A DNA stretch of 8,164 nucleotides from a virus (Duplodnaviria > Heunggongvirae > Uroviricota > Caudoviricetes): IMG/VR virus record IMGVR_UViG_2609459850_000003; one strand, given 5' to 3'. A program made the translations under genes and the position numbers. Shown here piece after piece: positions 2,348-8,164 of this stretch; the first letter of the stretch is position 1; the number at the start of each line of letters is the position of its first letter. Below the pieces are notes generated by a model. The model ran no database searches and had not been told where the DNA came from. It worked only from the letters and a program-made list of their open reading frames with translations.

Positions 2348-2563
2348 TTACTCTCTTCTCGCAACCTTACGCCTGTCTTCTTTAATCTTGAAATAAAGGT
2401 TTGTCAGATACGTCAGCATGCCAAATACCAGACTACCCAATACACCTATTGCCGCCCACTGTGAGGGCGTGACTTTATCGAGCAACTGTAAAAACCAGTA
2501 GCCAGCACTGCCTGCAGAGGTGCTGTAGGCGATGCCCGTTGTTAACTTATCCATGGATTTCAT
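2348..2563 (-). CDS. Class II holin of the phage 21 S21 pinholin family, with dual-start motif
   Basis: 71-aa product [71 protein letters not shown]: two transmembrane domains (the first Gly/Ala/Ser-rich and SAR-like) and a basic C-terminus. The M1-K2-S3-M4 dual-start motif is characteristic of S21-68/S21-71 holin/antiholin. Strong RBS GGAGGTGAGG upstream of the ATG at 2563. The ORF-track extension to 2647 has no ATG start. Confidence 0.9.
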
Positions 2564-2648: not shown

Positions 2649-2685
2649 TATTCAAAAAGAAAAACGCCAGCAATTATTCTGGCGT
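2649..2685 (-). terminator. Putative rho-independent terminator downstream of the AraC-family gene
   Basis: 7-bp perfect stem ACGCCAG (2664-2670) / CTGGCGT (2679-2685) with an 8-nt loop. On the minus strand it is followed by a T-rich tract (reverse complement of 2649-2663 is TTTTCTTTTTGAATA). About 70 nt downstream of the AraC stop. Confidence 0.5.
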
Positions 2686-2753: not shown

Positions 2754-3467
2754 CTAAGAAAATCTTGATAAATATTGGCGCGGAGGCACACCAAAATATC
2801 CTCTAAAAACACTTACAAAATATGATGCATTGTCATACCCGCATATTCCCGCCACCTTGCCGACAGTATGGTTACTGTAGATCAATAATCTTTGCGCCAT
2901 CATCATTCGTTCTTCAAGAATTAATTTACTAAACGATAACCCTTCGTCTTTTAATTTTCTTTTTAACAAACTCTCGCTCATATATAATCTTGAAGATATA
3001 TCACAAAGTCTCCATGACGCTGAGATATCCGAGTGAATAATAGCCTTAACTTTACAACCTAAGCTATTAAGACTTCCGAACAAAAAACTTTGCACTATTT
3101 TCTCTGAAGATAAGACAGCAAGACATGCAAGTGATATTTGATTTCTAACTACATCCACGGTTTTGCTATCACAATTCAAGCATGCAACCAAGTTCCTTAA
3201 CAAGGAAAAATCTTCACATTCTACTATCAAGTATGACGGATAAAACCTTCTTACAGAAAAAGGTGAGAGTGTGTAGTTTTTAAAGAAATCATTAACTGTT
3301 TTCTCCTCAACATCTACGATCATTAGATGATCTGTATTTGACGAAAAAAGATCTTTTAAATTGTATTCAATGAGGACAGCATTTCCTTTTTTAAACAAAA
3401 TATCTTCTTTACCAATTCGGACACCAAACGAGTTCAACACCAAAATGATAGAACATATGTATGGCAT
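2754..3467 (-). CDS. AraC/XylS-family transcriptional regulator (AppY/EnvY/Rns-like), AT-rich xenogeneic gene
   Basis: ATG at 3467 with RBS AGGTGG 5 nt upstream (the ORF-track start at 3476 is GTG). The C-terminal roughly 100 aa carry the double helix-turn-helix signature of the AraC family (...SFSKLILEERMMMAQRLLIYSNHTVGKVAGICGYDNASYFVSVFRGYFGVPPRQY). The gene and about 400 bp upstream are visibly AT-rich. Confidence 0.85.
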   Translation of the reverse strand: MPYICSIILVLNSFGVRIGKEDILFKKGNAVLIEYNLKDLFSSNTDHLMIVDVEEKTVNDFFKNYTLSPFSVRRFYPSYLIVECEDFSLLRNLVACLNCDSKTVDVVRNQISLACLAVLSSEKIVQSFLFGSLNSLGCKVKAIIHSDISASWRLCDISSRLYMSESLLKRKLKDEGLSFSKLILEERMMMAQRLLIYSNHTVGKVAGICGYDNASYFVSVFRGYFGVPPRQYLSRFS

Positions 3468-3873
3468 ATTATCCACCTGATATCATTGGGGTTACACCAG
3501 GTAAGTATAGGTGGAAAATCAATATTCGCCAGTTCAACAATAAGGAAAATCTCATTGCATCACAACTATAAAACCATGTGTTTAACTCACAAAAAACAAA
3601 TCATTAAACTAATCTGTTATATTATAATAGCTGCGTGCAATAATAATATTATATGCTCTTAATATTCACTTGAAATATCTTCATATAAAAACAGATTGAA
3701 TAAAATCTTTTGGGGCTGGTATGTTTACCAACATTAAATTGCATCTCAATGTTTTCTTTAGCGTGAACAGGATTTTTATACAAACTGACACTATGGGCAT
3801 CATAGCGTAGTTTTTACGATTGTAAATATCCTGCATACAGGAACTCATCACTTTCAGATGATATCGCATACAG

Positions 3874-4833
3874 TTAATTCACCATCAGTCTTAGAGCCAG
3901 TTCTTCCGGATAGGGATCGAAGTAATTCTGTGTAAGCAAGTAATCATTAGGATACTCACCCAGATAATGCTTCAGCAGAGTCAACGGCGCAAGAAGAGGC
4001 AATGTGCCAAAGCGATAGTTAAGTATAACCTCGCTCAACTCTTTACGCTGGCGTGTACTTAAGTAATTACTAAAATACCCCTGTATATGCATCAGCACAT
4101 TCGTGTGATTTTTACGTGATGCTGGTTTTCTGAGAATCGCCATCAGATTATCACGATACACCTCAAAGTATGATTCAAGGTCCGCCCACTCGTGTATTGC
4201 AGCCACAAATGGTCCCATATCTTTATAGCCTGCCTGGCTATGCGCCAACAACTGAAGCTTATAACGACTATGAAAAGCTAATAACTCTCTTCTTGATAAT
4301 TTCTCCTTGTAAAGATGATTGAGCTCATGCAAAGCAAAAACTCTTTCAATAAAATTCTCACGAAGCACTGGATCATGTAATCGCCCATCCTCTTCAACCG
4401 GTAGCCAGGAAAACTTTTCCATCAAAGTGCTCGTAAATAGTCCCACTCCATCTTTACGACCTCGATTACCATTTTCATCATAGACACGCACGCGCTCCAT
4501 GCCACAGCTGGGAGATTTAGCACAAACCACAAACCCCGATACATCCTTTAATTTGTCCATATAAGAACGACTAAACTCTGTCATTCTCTCTGTCACATCC
4601 TCATTCTGGTCGTGGCTGAAACACATCCGTATATTTCCTTGCTTCGAGCGCACAAGTCGTAGAGCAGGACGCGGAACTGGCAGCCCTATAGCCATTTCCG
4701 GACATACTGGTCTGAATGTTACCCATTCCACTAATTTGTCCATTAAAAAGTCATCTCTTTTGTGACCACCATCAAAACGAACAGCAGAACCGCCCAAACA
4801 ACCGCTGATCCCAATCACAGGTTTTTTTATCAT
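3874..4833 (-). CDS. DUF523 (TudS-like [4Fe-4S] thionucleobase desulfidase) fused to DUF1722 (YbgA-like); RudS-like
   Basis: 319-aa ORF; ATG at 4833 with strong RBS GGGGGAGG. N-terminus MIKKPVIGISGCLGGSAVRFDGGHK...PVCPE...KSPSCG matches the recalled DUF523/TudS pattern with three conserved Cys positioned as Fe-S ligands. The C-terminal roughly 170 aa are helical, consistent with DUF1722. The domain call is from recalled signatures, not a search. Confidence 0.75.
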   Translation of the reverse strand: MIKKPVIGISGCLGGSAVRFDGGHKRDDFLMDKLVEWVTFRPVCPEMAIGLPVPRPALRLVRSKQGNIRMCFSHDQNEDVTERMTEFSRSYMDKLKDVSGFVVCAKSPSCGMERVRVYDENGNRGRKDGVGLFTSTLMEKFSWLPVEEDGRLHDPVLRENFIERVFALHELNHLYKEKLSRRELLAFHSRYKLQLLAHSQAGYKDMGPFVAAIHEWADLESYFEVYRDNLMAILRKPASRKNHTNVLMHIQGYFSNYLSTRQRKELSEVILNYRFGTLPLLAPLTLLKHYLGEYPNDYLLTQNYFDPYPEELALRLMVN

Positions 4834-5025
4834 TTCCTCCCCCTTGACTAATTCATTAACACATAAACTTTGTAGTGCACGGACTAAATTGCCTTTCTGG
4901 CTTCATCACTGACAATTTTTCTGTTATTGACTATTCCTAATATAGTAGGAAAGTTCTTTAAGTGATCGGTCGTACTCATCTATCTTTCATACTTACTCTC
5001 AACTATCAAAAGTACAGGATTTATT
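4834..5025. promoter_or_regulatory. Divergent intergenic region between the DUF523-DUF1722 gene (-) and the lipocalin gene (+); presumed promoters and operators
   Basis: 192-bp AT-rich spacer between divergently oriented start codons. Contains TTGACT-like hexamers (for example 4927-4932) and an imperfect direct repeat TGACAAT (4910-4916) / TGACTAT (4928-4934). No promoter could be assigned confidently by eye. Confidence 0.35.
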
Positions 5026-5550
5026 ATGAAGTTATGGCCTGTGTTGACTGGCATTGCACTCTCTTTCACTCTTATAGCATGTAAGGCCCCGACACCACCT
5101 AAAGGTGTGCAGCCGATTACAAATTTTGACGCCAACCGCTACCTCGGAAAATGGTATGAAATAGCTCGCCTCGAGAACTGGTTCGAACGTGGTCTGGAAC
5201 AGGTCAGCGCTACTTATGAAAAACGGAACGACGGAGGGATTCGCGTACTTAACCGTGGATACGATCCAACGAAAAACAAATGGAGCGAGAGCGAAGGTAA
5301 AGCATACTTTACTGGAGATACTAAAACTGCAGCGTTGAAAGTTTCGTTTTTTGGCCCCTTCTATGGTGGCTATAATGTAATCAAACTGGATGATGAGTAT
5401 AAGTATGCTCTTGTCAGTGGTCCGAACAGAGAATACCTATGGATTCTGGCAAGGACCCAAACTATTCCAGATAATGTAAAAGCAGACTATGTGCGTACCG
5501 CTCAAAAGTTGGGATTCAATGTCAATGAACTATTATGGGTTAAACAATAA
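5026..5550 (+). CDS. Bacterial lipocalin (Blc-like outer-membrane lipoprotein)
   Basis: 174-aa ORF; ATG at 5026 with CAGGA 6 nt upstream. Lipoprotein signal with lipobox L-I-A-C. Lipocalin SCR1 motif NFDANRYLGKWYEIARLENWFERG and downstream KVSFFGPFYGGYNVIKLDDEY...YLWILART closely parallel E. coli Blc as recalled. Confidence 0.9.
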   Translation: MKLWPVLTGIALSFTLIACKAPTPPKGVQPITNFDANRYLGKWYEIARLENWFERGLEQVSATYEKRNDGGIRVLNRGYDPTKNKWSESEGKAYFTGDTKTAALKVSFFGPFYGGYNVIKLDDEYKYALVSGPNREYLWILARTQTIPDNVKADYVRTAQKLGFNVNELLWVKQ

Positions 5551-5578: not shown

Positions 5579-5605
5579 AAAAAAACCAGCCTTTGGGGAG
5601 GCTGG
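5579..5605 (-). terminator. Rho-independent terminator on the minus strand, candidate tR' of the phage late operon
   Basis: Stem CCAGCCT (5586-5592) / AGGCTGG (5599-5605) with a 6-nt loop, followed on the minus strand by seven U (A-run 5579-5585 on plus). About 100 nt downstream of the Q stop, matching the lambdoid pR'-tR' architecture. No T-run follows on the plus strand, so it is not a good terminator for the lipocalin gene. Confidence 0.6.
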
Positions 5606-5705
5606 CTAAATCAGGAAACAAGCTGTTATATGATAATAACTACGTTGCGATTCCAACATTTAAAATGTTAGACTAATGAAAATCAGACAGCAACTTTTCC
5701 TTTAA
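5606..5705 (-). promoter_or_regulatory. Putative late promoter pR' / qut region between Q and the tR'-like terminator
   Basis: Position is immediately downstream of Q and upstream of the intrinsic terminator. Contains a 7-1-7 palindrome AACATTT-a-AAATGTT (5655-5669) and several -10-like hexamers on the minus strand (TATAAC, TTAAAT). Exact -35/-10 not assignable by eye. Confidence 0.3.
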
Positions 5706-6083
5706 TTATTTCGAACAATCAGCATCCATCTCCAATCGGAGATCCAACACCATCAGCATGCCCTCCACTACGCCCTCAGCTTTCTGGAGCATCCTGCCAA
5801 CCCAACAATCAGATCGCCCATGCTTACGTGCAAGCGCCATAAAAGTCATGCCGCCGACATAATAGTCCACCAATAAATCATGTAAATCGCTGTTGTTTTT
5901 TTTCAGGCGAGCCATACATTCACAAATGATCATCGCGTCATCGTCACAGCATTGCGGACGAGATCTTACTTTTGAAGGAATTAATCCCTTAAAACCGGCG
6001 GCAATGGACGACCAGGTCACATCTTCATGATTATTAGCCGCCCATGCCCCCCAACGCTCAAGAACCATCTGAATATCACGCAT
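5706..6083 (-). CDS. Phage late-gene antitermination protein Q (phage 82/21 QuuD-like type)
   Basis: 125 aa from ATG at 6083 with RBS GGAG 7 nt upstream (the ORF-track start at 6098 is TTG). Sequence [24 protein letters not shown]...[32 protein letters not shown] closely resembles DLP12 QuuD as recalled, including the Cys cluster. Located immediately upstream of the late promoter/terminator and lysis genes. Confidence 0.8.
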
Positions 6084-6100
6084 CAACTTACTCCACAAAA

Positions 6101-7150
6101 TTAGGCCAGCACACCAATTGCCAGCGCGCGATCGATAAATCGAAAAATCAGCTCCAGTTGGGAGCCATACTTCTCTTCAAATGCCACGGTATCCGTATGC
6201 AACTCGTCGTGATGCTTTCTGCACAAAGGCAAAACAAAGAGATCATGTGCTTTGGTTCCCATTCCGCCCTGCCCGTGACCAATCAGATGATGCGGATCGT
6301 CGGCTGGCATACCGCAGCAAGCACACGGCTGTGTCTTAACCCAGCGTGTGTATTTCTCCTTAACCCACCGGTGACGTTTAGGCAGCTTCATGAAAGATTC
6401 CGGAGACTCTGGATCAACGGTGATGCTTACCACCGTCTTTTCCTGTGATGGGTTTTGTTGCTGGTGGGCGTGAGGCAACGGTGCAAGATTTTTTGTGCGC
6501 TGTTTCAATATGCTGGTGGCGGTCTGCTCTCCCGGTACGATGTCGCTTTCGCGGTACACCGAGCAGATTTTTTCCGCTGGTAATCCCAGCGAGCGACGTA
6601 ATACCGCTTCCGGTAGCGCGTCCGCCAGCTGATTGCGGACCGCCCACCAGGATAATTCAGCCAGAGATAATTCACGCTCCTGCGTACCGCTTATTGCGTG
6701 ACCGATGACGTCAATCATCCATGCTGACAGGTTTTGATGAGCAAGTTGCTCGAGTGATTCGGATGTCTGGTCACGCAGCTGGTTGTCGCAGTGCCAGCAC
6801 AACACCATTGCGCCGGTACCATATCGGTGAATAACGGTTTCGCTGTGATGATAATCGCCGTGTGGCCACTGGCAGGATTTAATATGGCGCAACAGCCAGT
6901 CAGACAATGCACCAGCACCACCAGCAGCACGAATTACCCGTGCGTTACTGAAAAACGGCAGCAATGTTTTGTCTTCCACCAGCGGCTGGCGAACGGCAGG
7001 AACGACCCCGGACGGCAGATTACGCATGCTTTTCGGTTCCGGCTCCACCAGTACCCGGGTATTGTGGAATACCGGCATGGATTCACGGCCCGGCTTAACG
7101 ACCACCAGCCCGAGTTCCGGTACCAGAACAGGTCGAAGTAATACCCGCAC
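6101..7150 (-). CDS. YdfU-like prophage protein (349 aa) with C-terminal Cys/His-rich YbcO-like putative zinc-binding/nuclease motif
   Basis: GTG start at 7150 preceded by GGAGG, with the upstream gene's TAA lying between the RBS and the start (coupled). Same length and genomic position (immediately upstream of Q) as Qin YdfU as recalled. C-terminus ...[45 protein letters not shown] resembles the small nin-region protein YbcO (DUF1364). Confidence 0.75.
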
Positions 7151-7830: not shown

Positions 7831-8164
7831 GGTAATGACTCCAACTTACTGATAGTGTTTTATGTTCAGATAATGCCCGATGACTTTGTCATGCAGCTCC
7901 ACCGATTTTGAGAACGACAGCGACTTCCGTCCCAGCCGTGCCAGGTGCTGCCTCAGATTCAGGTTATGCCGCTCAATTCGCTGCGTATATCGCTTGCTGA
8001 TTACGTGCAGCTTTCCCTTCAGGCGGGATTCATACAGCGGCCAGCCATCCGTCATCCATATCACCACGTCAAAGGGTGACAGCAGGCTCATAAGACGCCC
8101 CAGCGTCGCCATAGTGCGTTCACCGAATACGTGCGCAACAACCGTCTTCCGGAGCCTGTCATAC
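7831..8164 (-). mobile_element. IS1 insertion sequence, terminal 334 bp (continues beyond window end)
   Basis: Terminal inverted repeat ggtaatgactccaacttactgatagtg begins at 7831. The following sequence encodes the InsB C-terminus on the minus strand and matches IS1 as recalled nearly base for base. Confidence 0.9.
7846..8164 (-). CDS. insB: IS1 transposase InsB, C-terminal part (5' end outside window)
   Basis: Translation ...[88 protein letters not shown] is the canonical InsB C-terminus. TAA stop at 7846-7848 sits just inside the IS1 terminal repeat. The frame stays open to the window edge. Confidence 0.9.

Follow-up and report, generated by a model that had tools for sequence, protein, structure and literature searches.

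An intact AraC-family regulator of the PatE/Psr clade carried by a Qin-like prophage and its possible action on host acid resistance

The minus-strand gene placed at positions 2754–3467 of the window (the whole stretch of prophage DNA analyzed here, 8,164 nucleotides) encodes a full-length AraC/XylS-family regulator of 237 aa, which is under purifying selection and preserves both helix-turn-helix motifs. By sequence comparison, the characterized proteins most closely related to it are PatE and PsrA, two regulators from O157 prophages, ahead of GadW, AppY and YdeO. The interpretation to which we modestly lean is that this protein is an intact activator of the PatE/PsrA/PsrB clade, carried as a moron in a Qin-like prophage and acting in trans on host acid resistance.

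The regulator gene and its product

Depending on the start codon chosen, the regulator open reading frame spans positions 2754–3467 or 2754–3476, with the stop codon at 2754–2756. The ATG at 3467 was assigned as the start, since the GTG at 3476 falls within the Shine-Dalgarno sequence AGGTGG read at 3473–3478 (minus strand, 5 nt 5′ of the ATG and kept across the upstream alignment, A3), the N-terminus typical of the family, MxxxCS(V/I)I, begins at this ATG in the protein alignment (A1), and the RefSeq entry found in strain D72 (WP_032201951.1) has an annotated coding sequence of 714 nt. The GTG was therefore dropped as a start and considered part of the Shine-Dalgarno. A literature search for this exact regulator, by RefSeq accession and by context, returned nothing.

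The protein was recognized by the Pfam models HTH_18 (60.5 bits, cut-off 33.6) and HTH_AraC (42.3 bits, cut-off 26.6), and it carries at its C-terminus the domain of roughly 100 aa, with a pair of helix-turn-helix motifs, that defines the AraC/XylS family (aa 138–235; 2763–3056, minus strand). The AlphaFold model (pLDDT 88.7) presented two domains in an Rns/ToxT-like fold, of which the DNA-binding domain resembles that of GadX and the N-terminal portion (aa 1–135; 3063–3467, minus strand) is a predicted β-strand/helix regulatory domain of the Rns/ToxT/CsvR type. The DNA-binding domain matched that of GadX (3mkl) in phmmer with E=2.9e-21, and the Foldseek superposition of the model on the same structure gave TM values of 0.86–0.89 and an rmsd of 1.3–1.6 Å. 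Moreover, K169 of the regulator is aligned with K170 of AppY, whose change to glutamate abolished DNA binding (PMC10057817). The recognition helix 3 (SESLLKRKLK) has the same sequence in the window regulator and PatE, and helix 6 (SYFVSVF) is close to SYFISVF of PsrA.

The comparison of lineages revealed a dN/dS of about 0.2 for the whole gene (0.17–0.22) and of 0.09–0.13 for the DNA-binding domain. The gene was intact in the nine lineages compared, neither a frameshift nor a stop was found in any lineage examined, functional phages included, and all the residues invariant in the nine family members of alignment A1 are present in the window protein. With the whole gene near 0.2 and the DNA-binding domain at 0.13, these low ratios indicated purifying selection. 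The initial annotation had foreseen that a disrupted helix-turn-helix or a frameshift would expose a pseudogene; this possibility was discarded in view of the full length of the protein, the conservation of the invariant residues and the dN/dS. Its description of an AT-rich regulator of the AraC family located in a prophage was borne out by the open reading frame, both Pfam matches, the GC content and the Qin-like gene order.

Relationship to characterized regulators

In BLASTP comparisons with the O157 prophage regulators, which had been named as candidates for such a search, PatE (47% identity over residues 1–237, E=1e-75) and PsrA (38% over residues 1–235, E=8e-47) came out as the nearest characterized relatives, followed at full length by GadW (33%), AppY (30%, E=5e-41) and YdeO (29%), while EnvY and GadX gave partial matches only. 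The proposed resemblance to AppY/EnvY/Rns-type regulators held for AppY over the full length and for Rns/ToxT at the level of the fold, but the nearest relatives are PatE and PsrA. The end-to-end homology, extending through the N-terminal domain with its MxxxCS(V/I)I motif, supports placing the regulator in the PatE/Psr clade, and it is located on a prophage, as are the members of this clade.

PatE (Z0321, O-island 8/CP-933H, E. coli O157:H7) has the same two-domain layout, with the 47% identity extending end to end. The core promoter, with a TGGCA-type –35 and a TATACTT –10, is kept in both at equal spacing from the ATG, and they also share a prophage location, a high AT content (35% GC) and a restriction to E. 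coli. A search of GTDB species representatives for the regulator outside E. coli gave only a contig that resembles E. coli and is mislabelled as a Nanosynbacter MAG, and two matches confined to the DNA-binding domain. On the other hand, the N-terminal domain of PatE is strongly diverged (dN about 0.6), and patE adjoins an integrase/IS remnant instead of occupying the Q-holin site and has neither RudS-like nor lipocalin neighbors. The PatE targets were experimentally established, with gadE, gadBC and hdeAB up and the LEE genes down (PMC10877973), whereas those of the window regulator are predicted.

Of PsrA and PsrB (ECs1087/Z1789, Z2104), the prophage-encoded secretion regulators of O157:H7, PsrA shares 38% full-length identity and the similar helix 6 with the window regulator. 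Likewise, psrA lies downstream of the antiterminator Q in a lambdoid prophage and is oriented along late transcription. It differs in being followed by tRNA genes and effector/pch loci and in its higher GC content (42%), and the link of these regulators with LEE/type III secretion is irrelevant for LEE-less commensal or B-type hosts. PatE and PsrA are merely 37% identical to each other. Nevertheless, it was demonstrated that gadE expression is raised by PatE, PsrA and PsrB alike, and that PatE and PsrB, the latter a 90% paralog of PsrA, both bind one segment of the hdeA promoter, from –132 to –45 (PMC10877973). In addition, patE and rpoS expression was higher in stationary phase (PMC10877973), and psrA rises indirectly upon Hha repression (PMC13502914).

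AppY, from DLP12 of E. coli K-12, is also a prophage-borne AraC-like activator that preserves the DNA-binding lysine, and its gene is similarly AT-rich (31.7% GC, with 27.6% upstream); however, appY is found close to ompT, at the distal end of DLP12 and outside the Q-to-holin site, and PatE, PsrA and GadW are all closer to the window regulator than AppY is. Direct binding of AppY to gadE, and also to gadY, was reported, together with a dependence on H-NS and RpoS (PMC10057817). A group of prophage-carried AraC-type acid-resistance switches, comprising PatE, PsrA/B and AppY, is already known, and the window regulator appears to be a further member.

With regard to the chromosomal acid-resistance regulators GadW, GadX and YdeO, the DNA-binding domain superposes on the GadX domain 3mkl at 1.3 Å, but the scores with the NCBIfam equivalog models remained below the cut-offs for YdeO (113 bits vs 348) and GadX (89.8 bits vs 500), and the regulator is therefore no ortholog of GadW, GadX or YdeO. 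The best full-length structural matches in the PDB were Rns, CsvR and ToxT (E about 1e-10, TM about 0.45), which are fatty-acid-responsive virulence activators; at the sequence level, the match covered the C-terminal domain in Rns (E about 7e-18) and the greater part of ToxT (E about 5e-11). The window regulator differs from them in its 18–20% identity, in an N-terminal domain about 30 residues shorter, and in the gene being unlinked to pilus or toxin operons. In Rns and ToxT, the fatty-acid pocket is placed between the two domains, with the conserved carboxylate-binding residues H20/R75 in Rns and K31/K230 in ToxT.

Prophage context and gene neighborhood

The window matches Qin-like prophages, with 100% identity in ES3 and D72 and 99.6% in REL606, and preserves the gene order rem, ydfU, Q, cargo genes, and then holin, lysozyme and Rz. 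The late antiterminator Q (PF06530; 5706–6083, minus strand) starts the late operon that holds the cargo and is followed, about 100 nt downstream, by a tR′-like intrinsic terminator (5584–5607, minus strand), while the class II holin gene essQ (2348–2563, minus strand) comes first among the lysis genes that follow the cargo; both Q and essQ were assigned by Pfam and by the matching prophages. In sister phages that share this Q and holin, a porin occupies the cargo site instead. An intrinsic terminator-like hairpin with a T-run (2664–2685, minus strand) is placed 69 nt past the regulator stop and upstream of the holin gene, and an equivalent hairpin, GCCAGCATTATTGCTGGT followed by T8, comes after the regulator homolog in locus L012. 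With a predicted promoter and terminator of its own, a cargo position between backbone genes and a base composition that departs from theirs, the regulator gene has the attributes expected of a moron. Judging by gene order, its relatives sit behind Q irrespective of the Q family and of the other cargo, patE being outside the Q-holin site.

Two further cargo genes lie upstream of the regulator. The first (3874–4833, minus strand) encodes a RudS-like TudS(DUF523)-DUF1722 fusion, labelled as ‘YbgA family’, with 92% identity to RudS_vir of phage 1H12 and Cys12, Cys44 and Cys110 kept. It is separated by a divergent intergenic region (4834–5025, 34.4% GC) from a plus-strand gene (5026–5550) for a Blc-type outer-membrane lipocalin lipoprotein, identified by Pfam Lipocalin_2 and by the NCBIfam Blc subfamily model (312.6 bits vs a cut-off of 267). 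Among 5426 complete E. coli genomes, the segment with both neighbors was found in 1151, a regulator copy of at least 80% identity in about 1033, and the three genes together in about 1000. The same trio was found in 12 sequenced temperate phages, and all the IMG/VR loci with a regulator of at least 84% identity and with the upstream DNA retained have the RudS-like and lipocalin genes. The regulator is also present in at least 80 IMG/VR viral contigs.

Base composition and the upstream region

The regulator coding sequence has 34.0% GC and the region upstream of it 31.5%, which results in 33.1% over the 1120 nt of positions 2754–3873, compared to 44.7% in the whole window and 47–54% in the phage backbone genes; the locus is markedly richer in AT than the host genome and the flanking DNA, as expected of xenogeneic genes. 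The lowest-GC 1120-nt stretch of the window begins at position 2641 and thus coincides with this locus. The upstream region of about 400 bp had been described as extremely AT-rich, and its GC content indeed falls to 26.5–28% in 200-nt windows within 3468–3873, with the AT-rich run quoted at the time located at 3620–3654 on the plus strand. However, other intergenic regions of the cargo cassette are AT-rich too (34–37% GC), so that this label fits only the core at 3500–3800. Base composition and the likeness to appY make silencing of the locus by H-NS plausible.

The 406 bp of AT-rich intergenic DNA 5′ of the gene (3468–3873, minus strand) contain a predicted proximal core promoter, a 54-nt insertion at about 3660–3713, and a distal conserved block. 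The proximal promoter (P2; 3504–3532, minus strand) is composed of a –35 CTGGCG (3532–3527) and a –10 TATACT (3509–3504) with a 17-nt spacer, which would place the transcription start near 3497. In alignment A3, with six lineages of 45–100% protein identity, the TATACTT was invariant and the TGG of the –35 was kept, while the flanks diverge. An independent promoter scanner found the same register in related loci, as TTGGCA-18-TATACT in L012 and TTGGTA-17-TATACT in L011. The –35 is weak, preserving 3 of the 6 consensus positions, and its combination with the TATACT –10 suggests a stationary-phase (σS) or activator-dependent use. A distal promoter-like site (P1; TTTACA-16-TATGAT at 3826–3799, minus strand) matches 10 of the 12 consensus positions, and both hexamers were unchanged in the four variants of alignment A2, the divergent 82% variant among them. 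This site is inside a conserved block of about 60 nt directly after the RudS-like stop codon, which could alternatively represent the 3′ end of the RudS-like gene; otherwise, transcription from P1 could generate a true 5′ UTR of about 320 nt.

The initial annotation had considered this whole region a long AT-rich leader. Since P2, the core promoter conserved in six lineages, is predicted to lie about 40 nt before the ATG, the bulk of the 406 bp probably represents upstream regulatory DNA instead of 5′ UTR, and the leader as first worded was abandoned. A structured long 5′ UTR was also rejected, because the fold of the whole region reached a z of only –1.6 and the region was poorly alignable with the 82% variant, with 67% identity and many gaps. 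No known RNA element was found in 2754–3873 by Rfam, even at E≤1. Two small upstream open reading frames (62 aa, 3681–3869; 28 aa, 3469–3555) were discarded as their length and sequence are not kept among variants, and the 62-aa one had no Pfam match. A predicted hairpin that would sequester the Shine-Dalgarno and AUG of the regulator constitutes a weak lead: its local fold gave z=–2.5, the anti-Shine-Dalgarno TCCACCT had a p of about 0.02–0.03 by shuffling, and its 5′ arm overlaps the P2 spacer. It was found in the window clade only, being absent from P0013, PatE, PsrA and the other relatives tested.

Proposed action on host acid resistance and alternative explanations

In the proposed mechanism, the lysogen would transcribe the regulator from the predicted P2, with the AT-rich upstream DNA and coding region being, by their composition, probable H-NS binding targets. 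The protein would then act in trans on the AT-rich, H-NS-repressed promoters of the host acid fitness island, such as gadE and hdeAB, and acid resistance would rise as it does with PatE, PsrA/B and AppY. PatE and PsrA raise gadE alike in spite of their low mutual identity, and as the window protein falls inside the bracket formed by PatE, PsrA/B and AppY, we infer similar host targets for it; the 47% identity to PatE is no guarantee that the targets are identical. A low-power search for a sequence common to the regulatory regions of K-12 hdeA, gadE, gadW and gadX revealed nothing beyond shuffled controls.

AraC-family regulators frequently control neighboring genes. This habit, together with the co-occurrence of the three genes in E. 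coli genomes, temperate phages and IMG/VR loci, raises the alternative, already suggested by the initial annotation, of a dedicated local regulator that controls the RudS-like tRNA 4-thiouridine desulfidase and the divergent Blc lipocalin from 4834–5025 and/or 3468–3873, as one stress cassette. We consider this unlikely. The tight linkage at 84% identity and above stands, but relatives at 60%, 50% and 45–47% identity, as well as PsrA, are found behind Q without either gene, those at 60%, 50% and 45% directly in the Q–holin interval, and the genes next to patE and psrA are different ones. In addition, the regulator has a history separate from that of the adjoining genes, with 89% nucleotide identity compared to their 98% and a recombination breakpoint inside the regulator gene, and REL606 retains it despite the disruption of the RudS-like gene by IS3. 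Furthermore, no repeat or motif is common to 4834–5025 and 3468–3873, other than short matches typical of AT-rich DNA. The constant presence of the neighbors with close variants and their absence with distant relatives favor action in trans over dedicated neighbor control, and local control is compatible with the trans-acting model.

A role in the lytic program seems quite improbable. The regulator would in this case be an early cargo of the late operon, antiterminated by Q on induction, and would reprogram the transcription of host or phage ahead of lysis. At least three Q families, and active phages as well, have the gene behind Q in this position and orientation, and the gene order implies that late transcription must cross the regulator to reach the lysis genes; however, it has its own conserved predicted promoter and terminator, its characterized relatives act in lysogens, under stationary-phase or host-contact conditions, and patE is outside the Q-to-holin site. 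The ribosome-binding site, predicted to be paired in longer transcripts (probability unpaired 0.16), might also limit the translation of read-through RNA, which argues weakly in the same direction. Even less credible, to the point of being very improbable, is a silent decaying remnant, an AT-rich foreign gene silenced by H-NS in a defective prophage and devoid of current function. The prophage is defective, with IS fragments at both window ends and ydfU broken in related strains, and the proximal –35 is weak, but a dN/dS of 0.13–0.22, the uninterrupted reading frame in the lineages examined and the complete set of invariant residues contradict decay of the gene itself.

A further model, also improbable, builds on the position of the PatE/Psr/window clade directly after Q and its terminator tR′, along late transcription. 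It joins action on the host with the lytic context by wiring these regulators to two inputs, a stationary-phase promoter of their own in the lysogen and Q-dependent read-through on induction, with translation of the long transcript gated by the hairpin, in which a segment upstream of the proximal start would pair with the ribosome-binding site and the start codon. If true, the induction state of the prophage would be coupled to the host acid-stress and H-NS-countering regulon, and the regulator, the tRNA 4-thiouridine desulfidase (near-UV response) and the lipocalin would form a co-selected stress module.

Returning to the favored trans-acting activator, if the regulator behaves like PatE, PsrB or AppY it would represent a further horizontally supplied input into the acid-resistance network, and strain differences in acid tolerance and stationary-phase physiology could follow. 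The occurrence of the clade behind Q, whatever the Q type, with a conserved predicted promoter and terminator, makes it a tidy example of a regulatory moron. This regulator, or a variant at least 80% identical to it, occurs in about one fifth of the complete E. coli genomes; among the carriers are the B lineage used in laboratory and industry, with strains such as REL606, as well as ATCC 8739 and isolates from human blood.

The regulator and its relatives

The AraC-like regulator gene (2754-3467, minus strand) exceeded the Pfam cut-offs for both HTH_18 (60.5 bits) and HTH_AraC (42.3 bits), which bears out its assignment to the AraC family in the initial annotation. The start codon was placed at the ATG at 3467, from which the family N-terminus aligns and RefSeq annotates 237 aa; the GTG at 3476 from a mechanical ORF list was dropped, since it falls within the Shine-Dalgarno sequence AGGTGG. 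Compared with eight other lineages, the gene carried no stop or frameshift; its dN/dS was 0.17-0.22 over the full length and 0.09-0.13 within the DNA-binding domain, which argues against a pseudogene.

BLASTP revealed full-length similarity to PatE (Z0321, from O157 strain SS52; 47% identity), PsrA (ECs1087 of Sakai prophage Sp4, read from an upstream in-frame ATG; 38%), GadW (33%), AppY (30%) and YdeO (29%), besides a partial match to EnvY (31%) and one to GadX (41%) confined to the C-terminal domain. No NCBIfam equivalog cut-off was reached (YdeO, 113 bits vs 348; GadX, 89.8 vs 500), and the regulator is therefore not an ortholog of these chromosomal proteins. PatE and PsrA share only 37% identity with each other, and the window regulator lies inside the bracket they form. 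It is a new, uncharacterised member of the known prophage-encoded PatE/Psr/AppY-type AraC regulators, and a literature search retrieved no data on this gene.

A confident AlphaFold model built with 14 homologs (pLDDT 88.7, pTM 0.83) had Rns, CsvR and ToxT as its top full-length PDB matches (E about 1e-10, TM about 0.45), and superposing its C-terminal domain on the DNA-binding domain of GadX gave an rmsd of 1.3-1.6 Å. Recognition helix 3 of PatE (SESLLKRKLK) is identical in the window regulator, helix 6 of PsrA resembles its SYFVSVF, and its K169 aligns with AppY K170, the residue at which K170E abolishes DNA binding (PMC10057817). As for psrA itself (Sakai ECs1087; 18677-19390 in locus L010), the annotated CDS of 588 nt (195 aa) is apparently short at its 5′ end: read from the in-frame ATG that lies 126 nt further upstream, the product has 237 aa and follows the family alignment from its very first residue (MVVVCSVI...).

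Prophage setting and the question of local control

The window showed 100% identity to strains ES3 and D72 and 99.6% to the B-lineage strain REL606 over 2754-3873. Along the minus strand, rem comes first, then ydfU (DUF968), antiterminator Q (5706-6083) and a cargo block, followed by the holin (2348-2563), a YdfR-like ORF, lysozyme and Rz. Judged by this order and these matches, it is a piece of an E. coli Qin-like lambdoid prophage, in agreement with the origin first proposed. The cargo block comprises the regulator, a gene labelled 'YbgA family' that fuses DUF523 and DUF1722 (3874-4833, minus) and a Blc-type lipocalin (5026-5550, plus; 312.6 bits vs a cut-off of 267 for the NCBIfam Blc subfamily). 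The lipocalin lipoprotein gene faces against the Q-dependent late transcript, so that late transcription would be antisense to it. The TudS(DUF523)-DUF1722 fusion shares 92% identity with phage 1H12 RudS_vir, an experimentally tested tRNA 4-thiouridine desulfidase, and keeps Cys12, Cys44 and Cys110; E. coli was said to lack RudS (PMC11417400), whereas this prophage copy occurs in about 1150 of 5426 complete genomes.

The initial annotation suggested that the regulator controls its RudS-like and lipocalin neighbours, and the distribution of the three genes offers some support for such dedicated local control. The trio is tightly linked within E. coli: the RudS-like and lipocalin segment was found in 1151 of the 5426 complete genomes and a regulator copy of at least 80% identity in about 1033, while Qin-like and DLP12-like prophages carry all three together, as do 12 sequenced temperate phages, IdasGreatGrand and 1H12 among them. 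Likewise, all IMG/VR loci of at least 84% identity that retain upstream DNA have both neighbours, with the holin about 200 nt downstream. More distant relatives, however, do without them and follow Q proteins from different families. At 60% identity (P0013) the gene follows a PF03589 Q on a contig that stops before any holin; at 50% (P0016) it lies directly between a PF06323 Q and the holin; at 45% (P0023) it precedes the holin on a contig that begins after any Q; and in IMG/VR a PatE-like locus is likewise placed directly between Q and the holin, all lacking the RudS-like and lipocalin genes. A Q, from one of three families, also precedes psrA and 15 PsrA-like viral loci.

The history of the regulator is also separate from that of its neighbours, because it is 89% identical in the same variants whose cargo is 98% identical, and because synonymous divergence from these variants is 0.12 over codons 1-135 but 0.77 over codons 136-237, placing a recombination breakpoint near codon 135 (about 3060); the N-terminal and DNA-binding domains thus differ in ancestry. 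Moreover, REL606 retains the regulator despite an IS3 element that splits its RudS-like gene, and no repeats or motifs were found shared between the regulator upstream region and the divergent promoter region. Dedicated local control is thus the weaker reading, and the conserved partner of the regulator clade is the site behind Q rather than the adjoining cargo.

A scan of GTDB species representatives returned, beyond E. coli, only one E. coli-like contig and two matches to the DNA-binding domain alone in Bacteroidota; the regulator is widespread in, and restricted to, E. coli. The contig, a 3.2-kb piece filed under a 'Candidatus Nanosynbacter' MAG (JARKOR010000151.1) and encoding an 84% identical copy, almost certainly stems from E. 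coli prophage DNA that contaminated the bin.

Proposed targets in the host

The acid-fitness island is where all characterised members of this branch converge. According to a review, PatE and PsrB share a binding segment in the hdeA promoter, and PatE, PsrA and PsrB alike raise gadE expression (PMC10877973); AppY binds gadE, gadY and slp, and GadW, GadX and YdeO modulate gadE expression (PMC10057817). Given this convergence and the position of the regulator within the PatE-PsrA bracket, action in trans, which the initial annotation had offered as its other option, is favoured. By analogy, we infer that the regulator would act on the AT-rich, H-NS-repressed host promoters targeted by PatE/Psr/AppY and would thereby raise acid resistance. 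No sequence shared with the K-12 target regions was found beyond chance.

The AT-richness described for the gene and its upstream region was confirmed, with GC contents of 34.0% in the CDS (GC3 31.5%) and 31.5% in 3468-3873 (core 26.5-28%), vs 44.7% in the window and 46-54% in phage backbone genes. The lowest-GC stretch of 1120 nt begins at 2641, and the AT-rich run singled out earlier lies at 3620-3654; the remaining intergenic regions of the cassette are likewise AT-rich (34-37% GC). H-NS silencing of the locus is plausible by analogy with appY, which matches it in base composition and is reported to be H-NS- and RpoS-dependent, and with psrA, whose expression goes up upon repression of Hha, a partner of H-NS (PMC13502914).

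A predicted promoter close to the start codon

The 406 bp upstream of the gene (3468-3873) had been described as a long leader. When the 150 nt preceding the start codon were aligned across six lineages with proteins at 45-100% identity to the window regulator, TATACTT proved invariant and TGG(C/T)(A/G), at the spacing of a promoter, was conserved, between diverging flanks. The predicted promoter (CTGGCG at 3532-3527, 17-nt spacer, TATACT at 3509-3504, minus strand) would start transcription near 3497 and leave a 5′ UTR of about 30 nt, and an independent consensus scanner recovered the same element at homolog loci (TTGGCA-18-TATACT in L012, TTGGTA-17-TATACT in L011). For most of the AT-rich region, upstream regulatory DNA is therefore a likelier role than leader RNA. 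A TATACT –10 element with a poor –35 is the typical look of stationary-phase (σS) promoters. Expression of patE and rpoS is reported to be higher in stationary phase (PMC10877973).

The region shows 91-92% identity with the 89% variants (phage IdasGreatGrand, strain 3059), relative to which it carries a 54-nt AT-rich insertion at about 3660-3713; against the 82% variant, identity is just 67% and the alignment has about 95 gap columns. As a whole it folds unremarkably (z=-1.6), and it yielded no Rfam match and no conserved small ORF. Two minus-strand ORFs, of 28 codons ending 1 nt before the ATG (3469-3555) and of 62 codons just after the RudS-like stop (3681-3869), are probably not genes, as neither is conserved in the 82% variant or in phage 1H12. 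A distal promoter-like site (TTTACA-16-TATGAT, 3826-3799, minus), within a stretch of roughly 60 nt that is conserved among all four RudS-linked variants, could be a second promoter or else reflect the 3′ end of the RudS-like gene. Downstream of the regulator, a hairpin resembling an intrinsic terminator (2685-2664, minus) has an equivalent in L012, and predicted promoter, gene and terminator together make up a moron layout.

In RNA starting 5′ of the proximal promoter, folding predicts that GGCGAAUAUU...UCCACCU pairs with both the ribosome-binding site and the AUG (local z=-2.5; P(SD unpaired) 0.16). Shuffled sequences seldom contained the anti-SD heptamer (p about 0.02-0.03), a result limited to the window clade, and the heptamer overlaps the promoter spacer; speculatively, such pairing might restrict translation of Q-dependent read-through RNA.

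Other features of the locus

Just 3′ of Q (5584-5705, minus), promoter-like hexamers and a strong terminator hairpin at 5607-5584 (AGCCAGCC...GGCTGG plus a T-run) look like a pR′/tR′ unit, which would yield a short late-promoter RNA; the Rfam match to RF02278 was sub-threshold (28.6 bits vs 50). IS/transposase fragments occupy both window ends (1-400 and 7846-8164), which from their translations we take to be IS5-like on the left and IS1 InsB-like on the right. The ydfU gene (6101-7150) is whole here, frameshifted in D72 and truncated in REL606. In sister temperate phages that share this Q and holin (e.g., OV696612, OM475427, NC_049946), an OmpD/NmpC-type porin replaces the lipocalin/RudS/AraC block, and the cargo at this site is therefore exchangeable.
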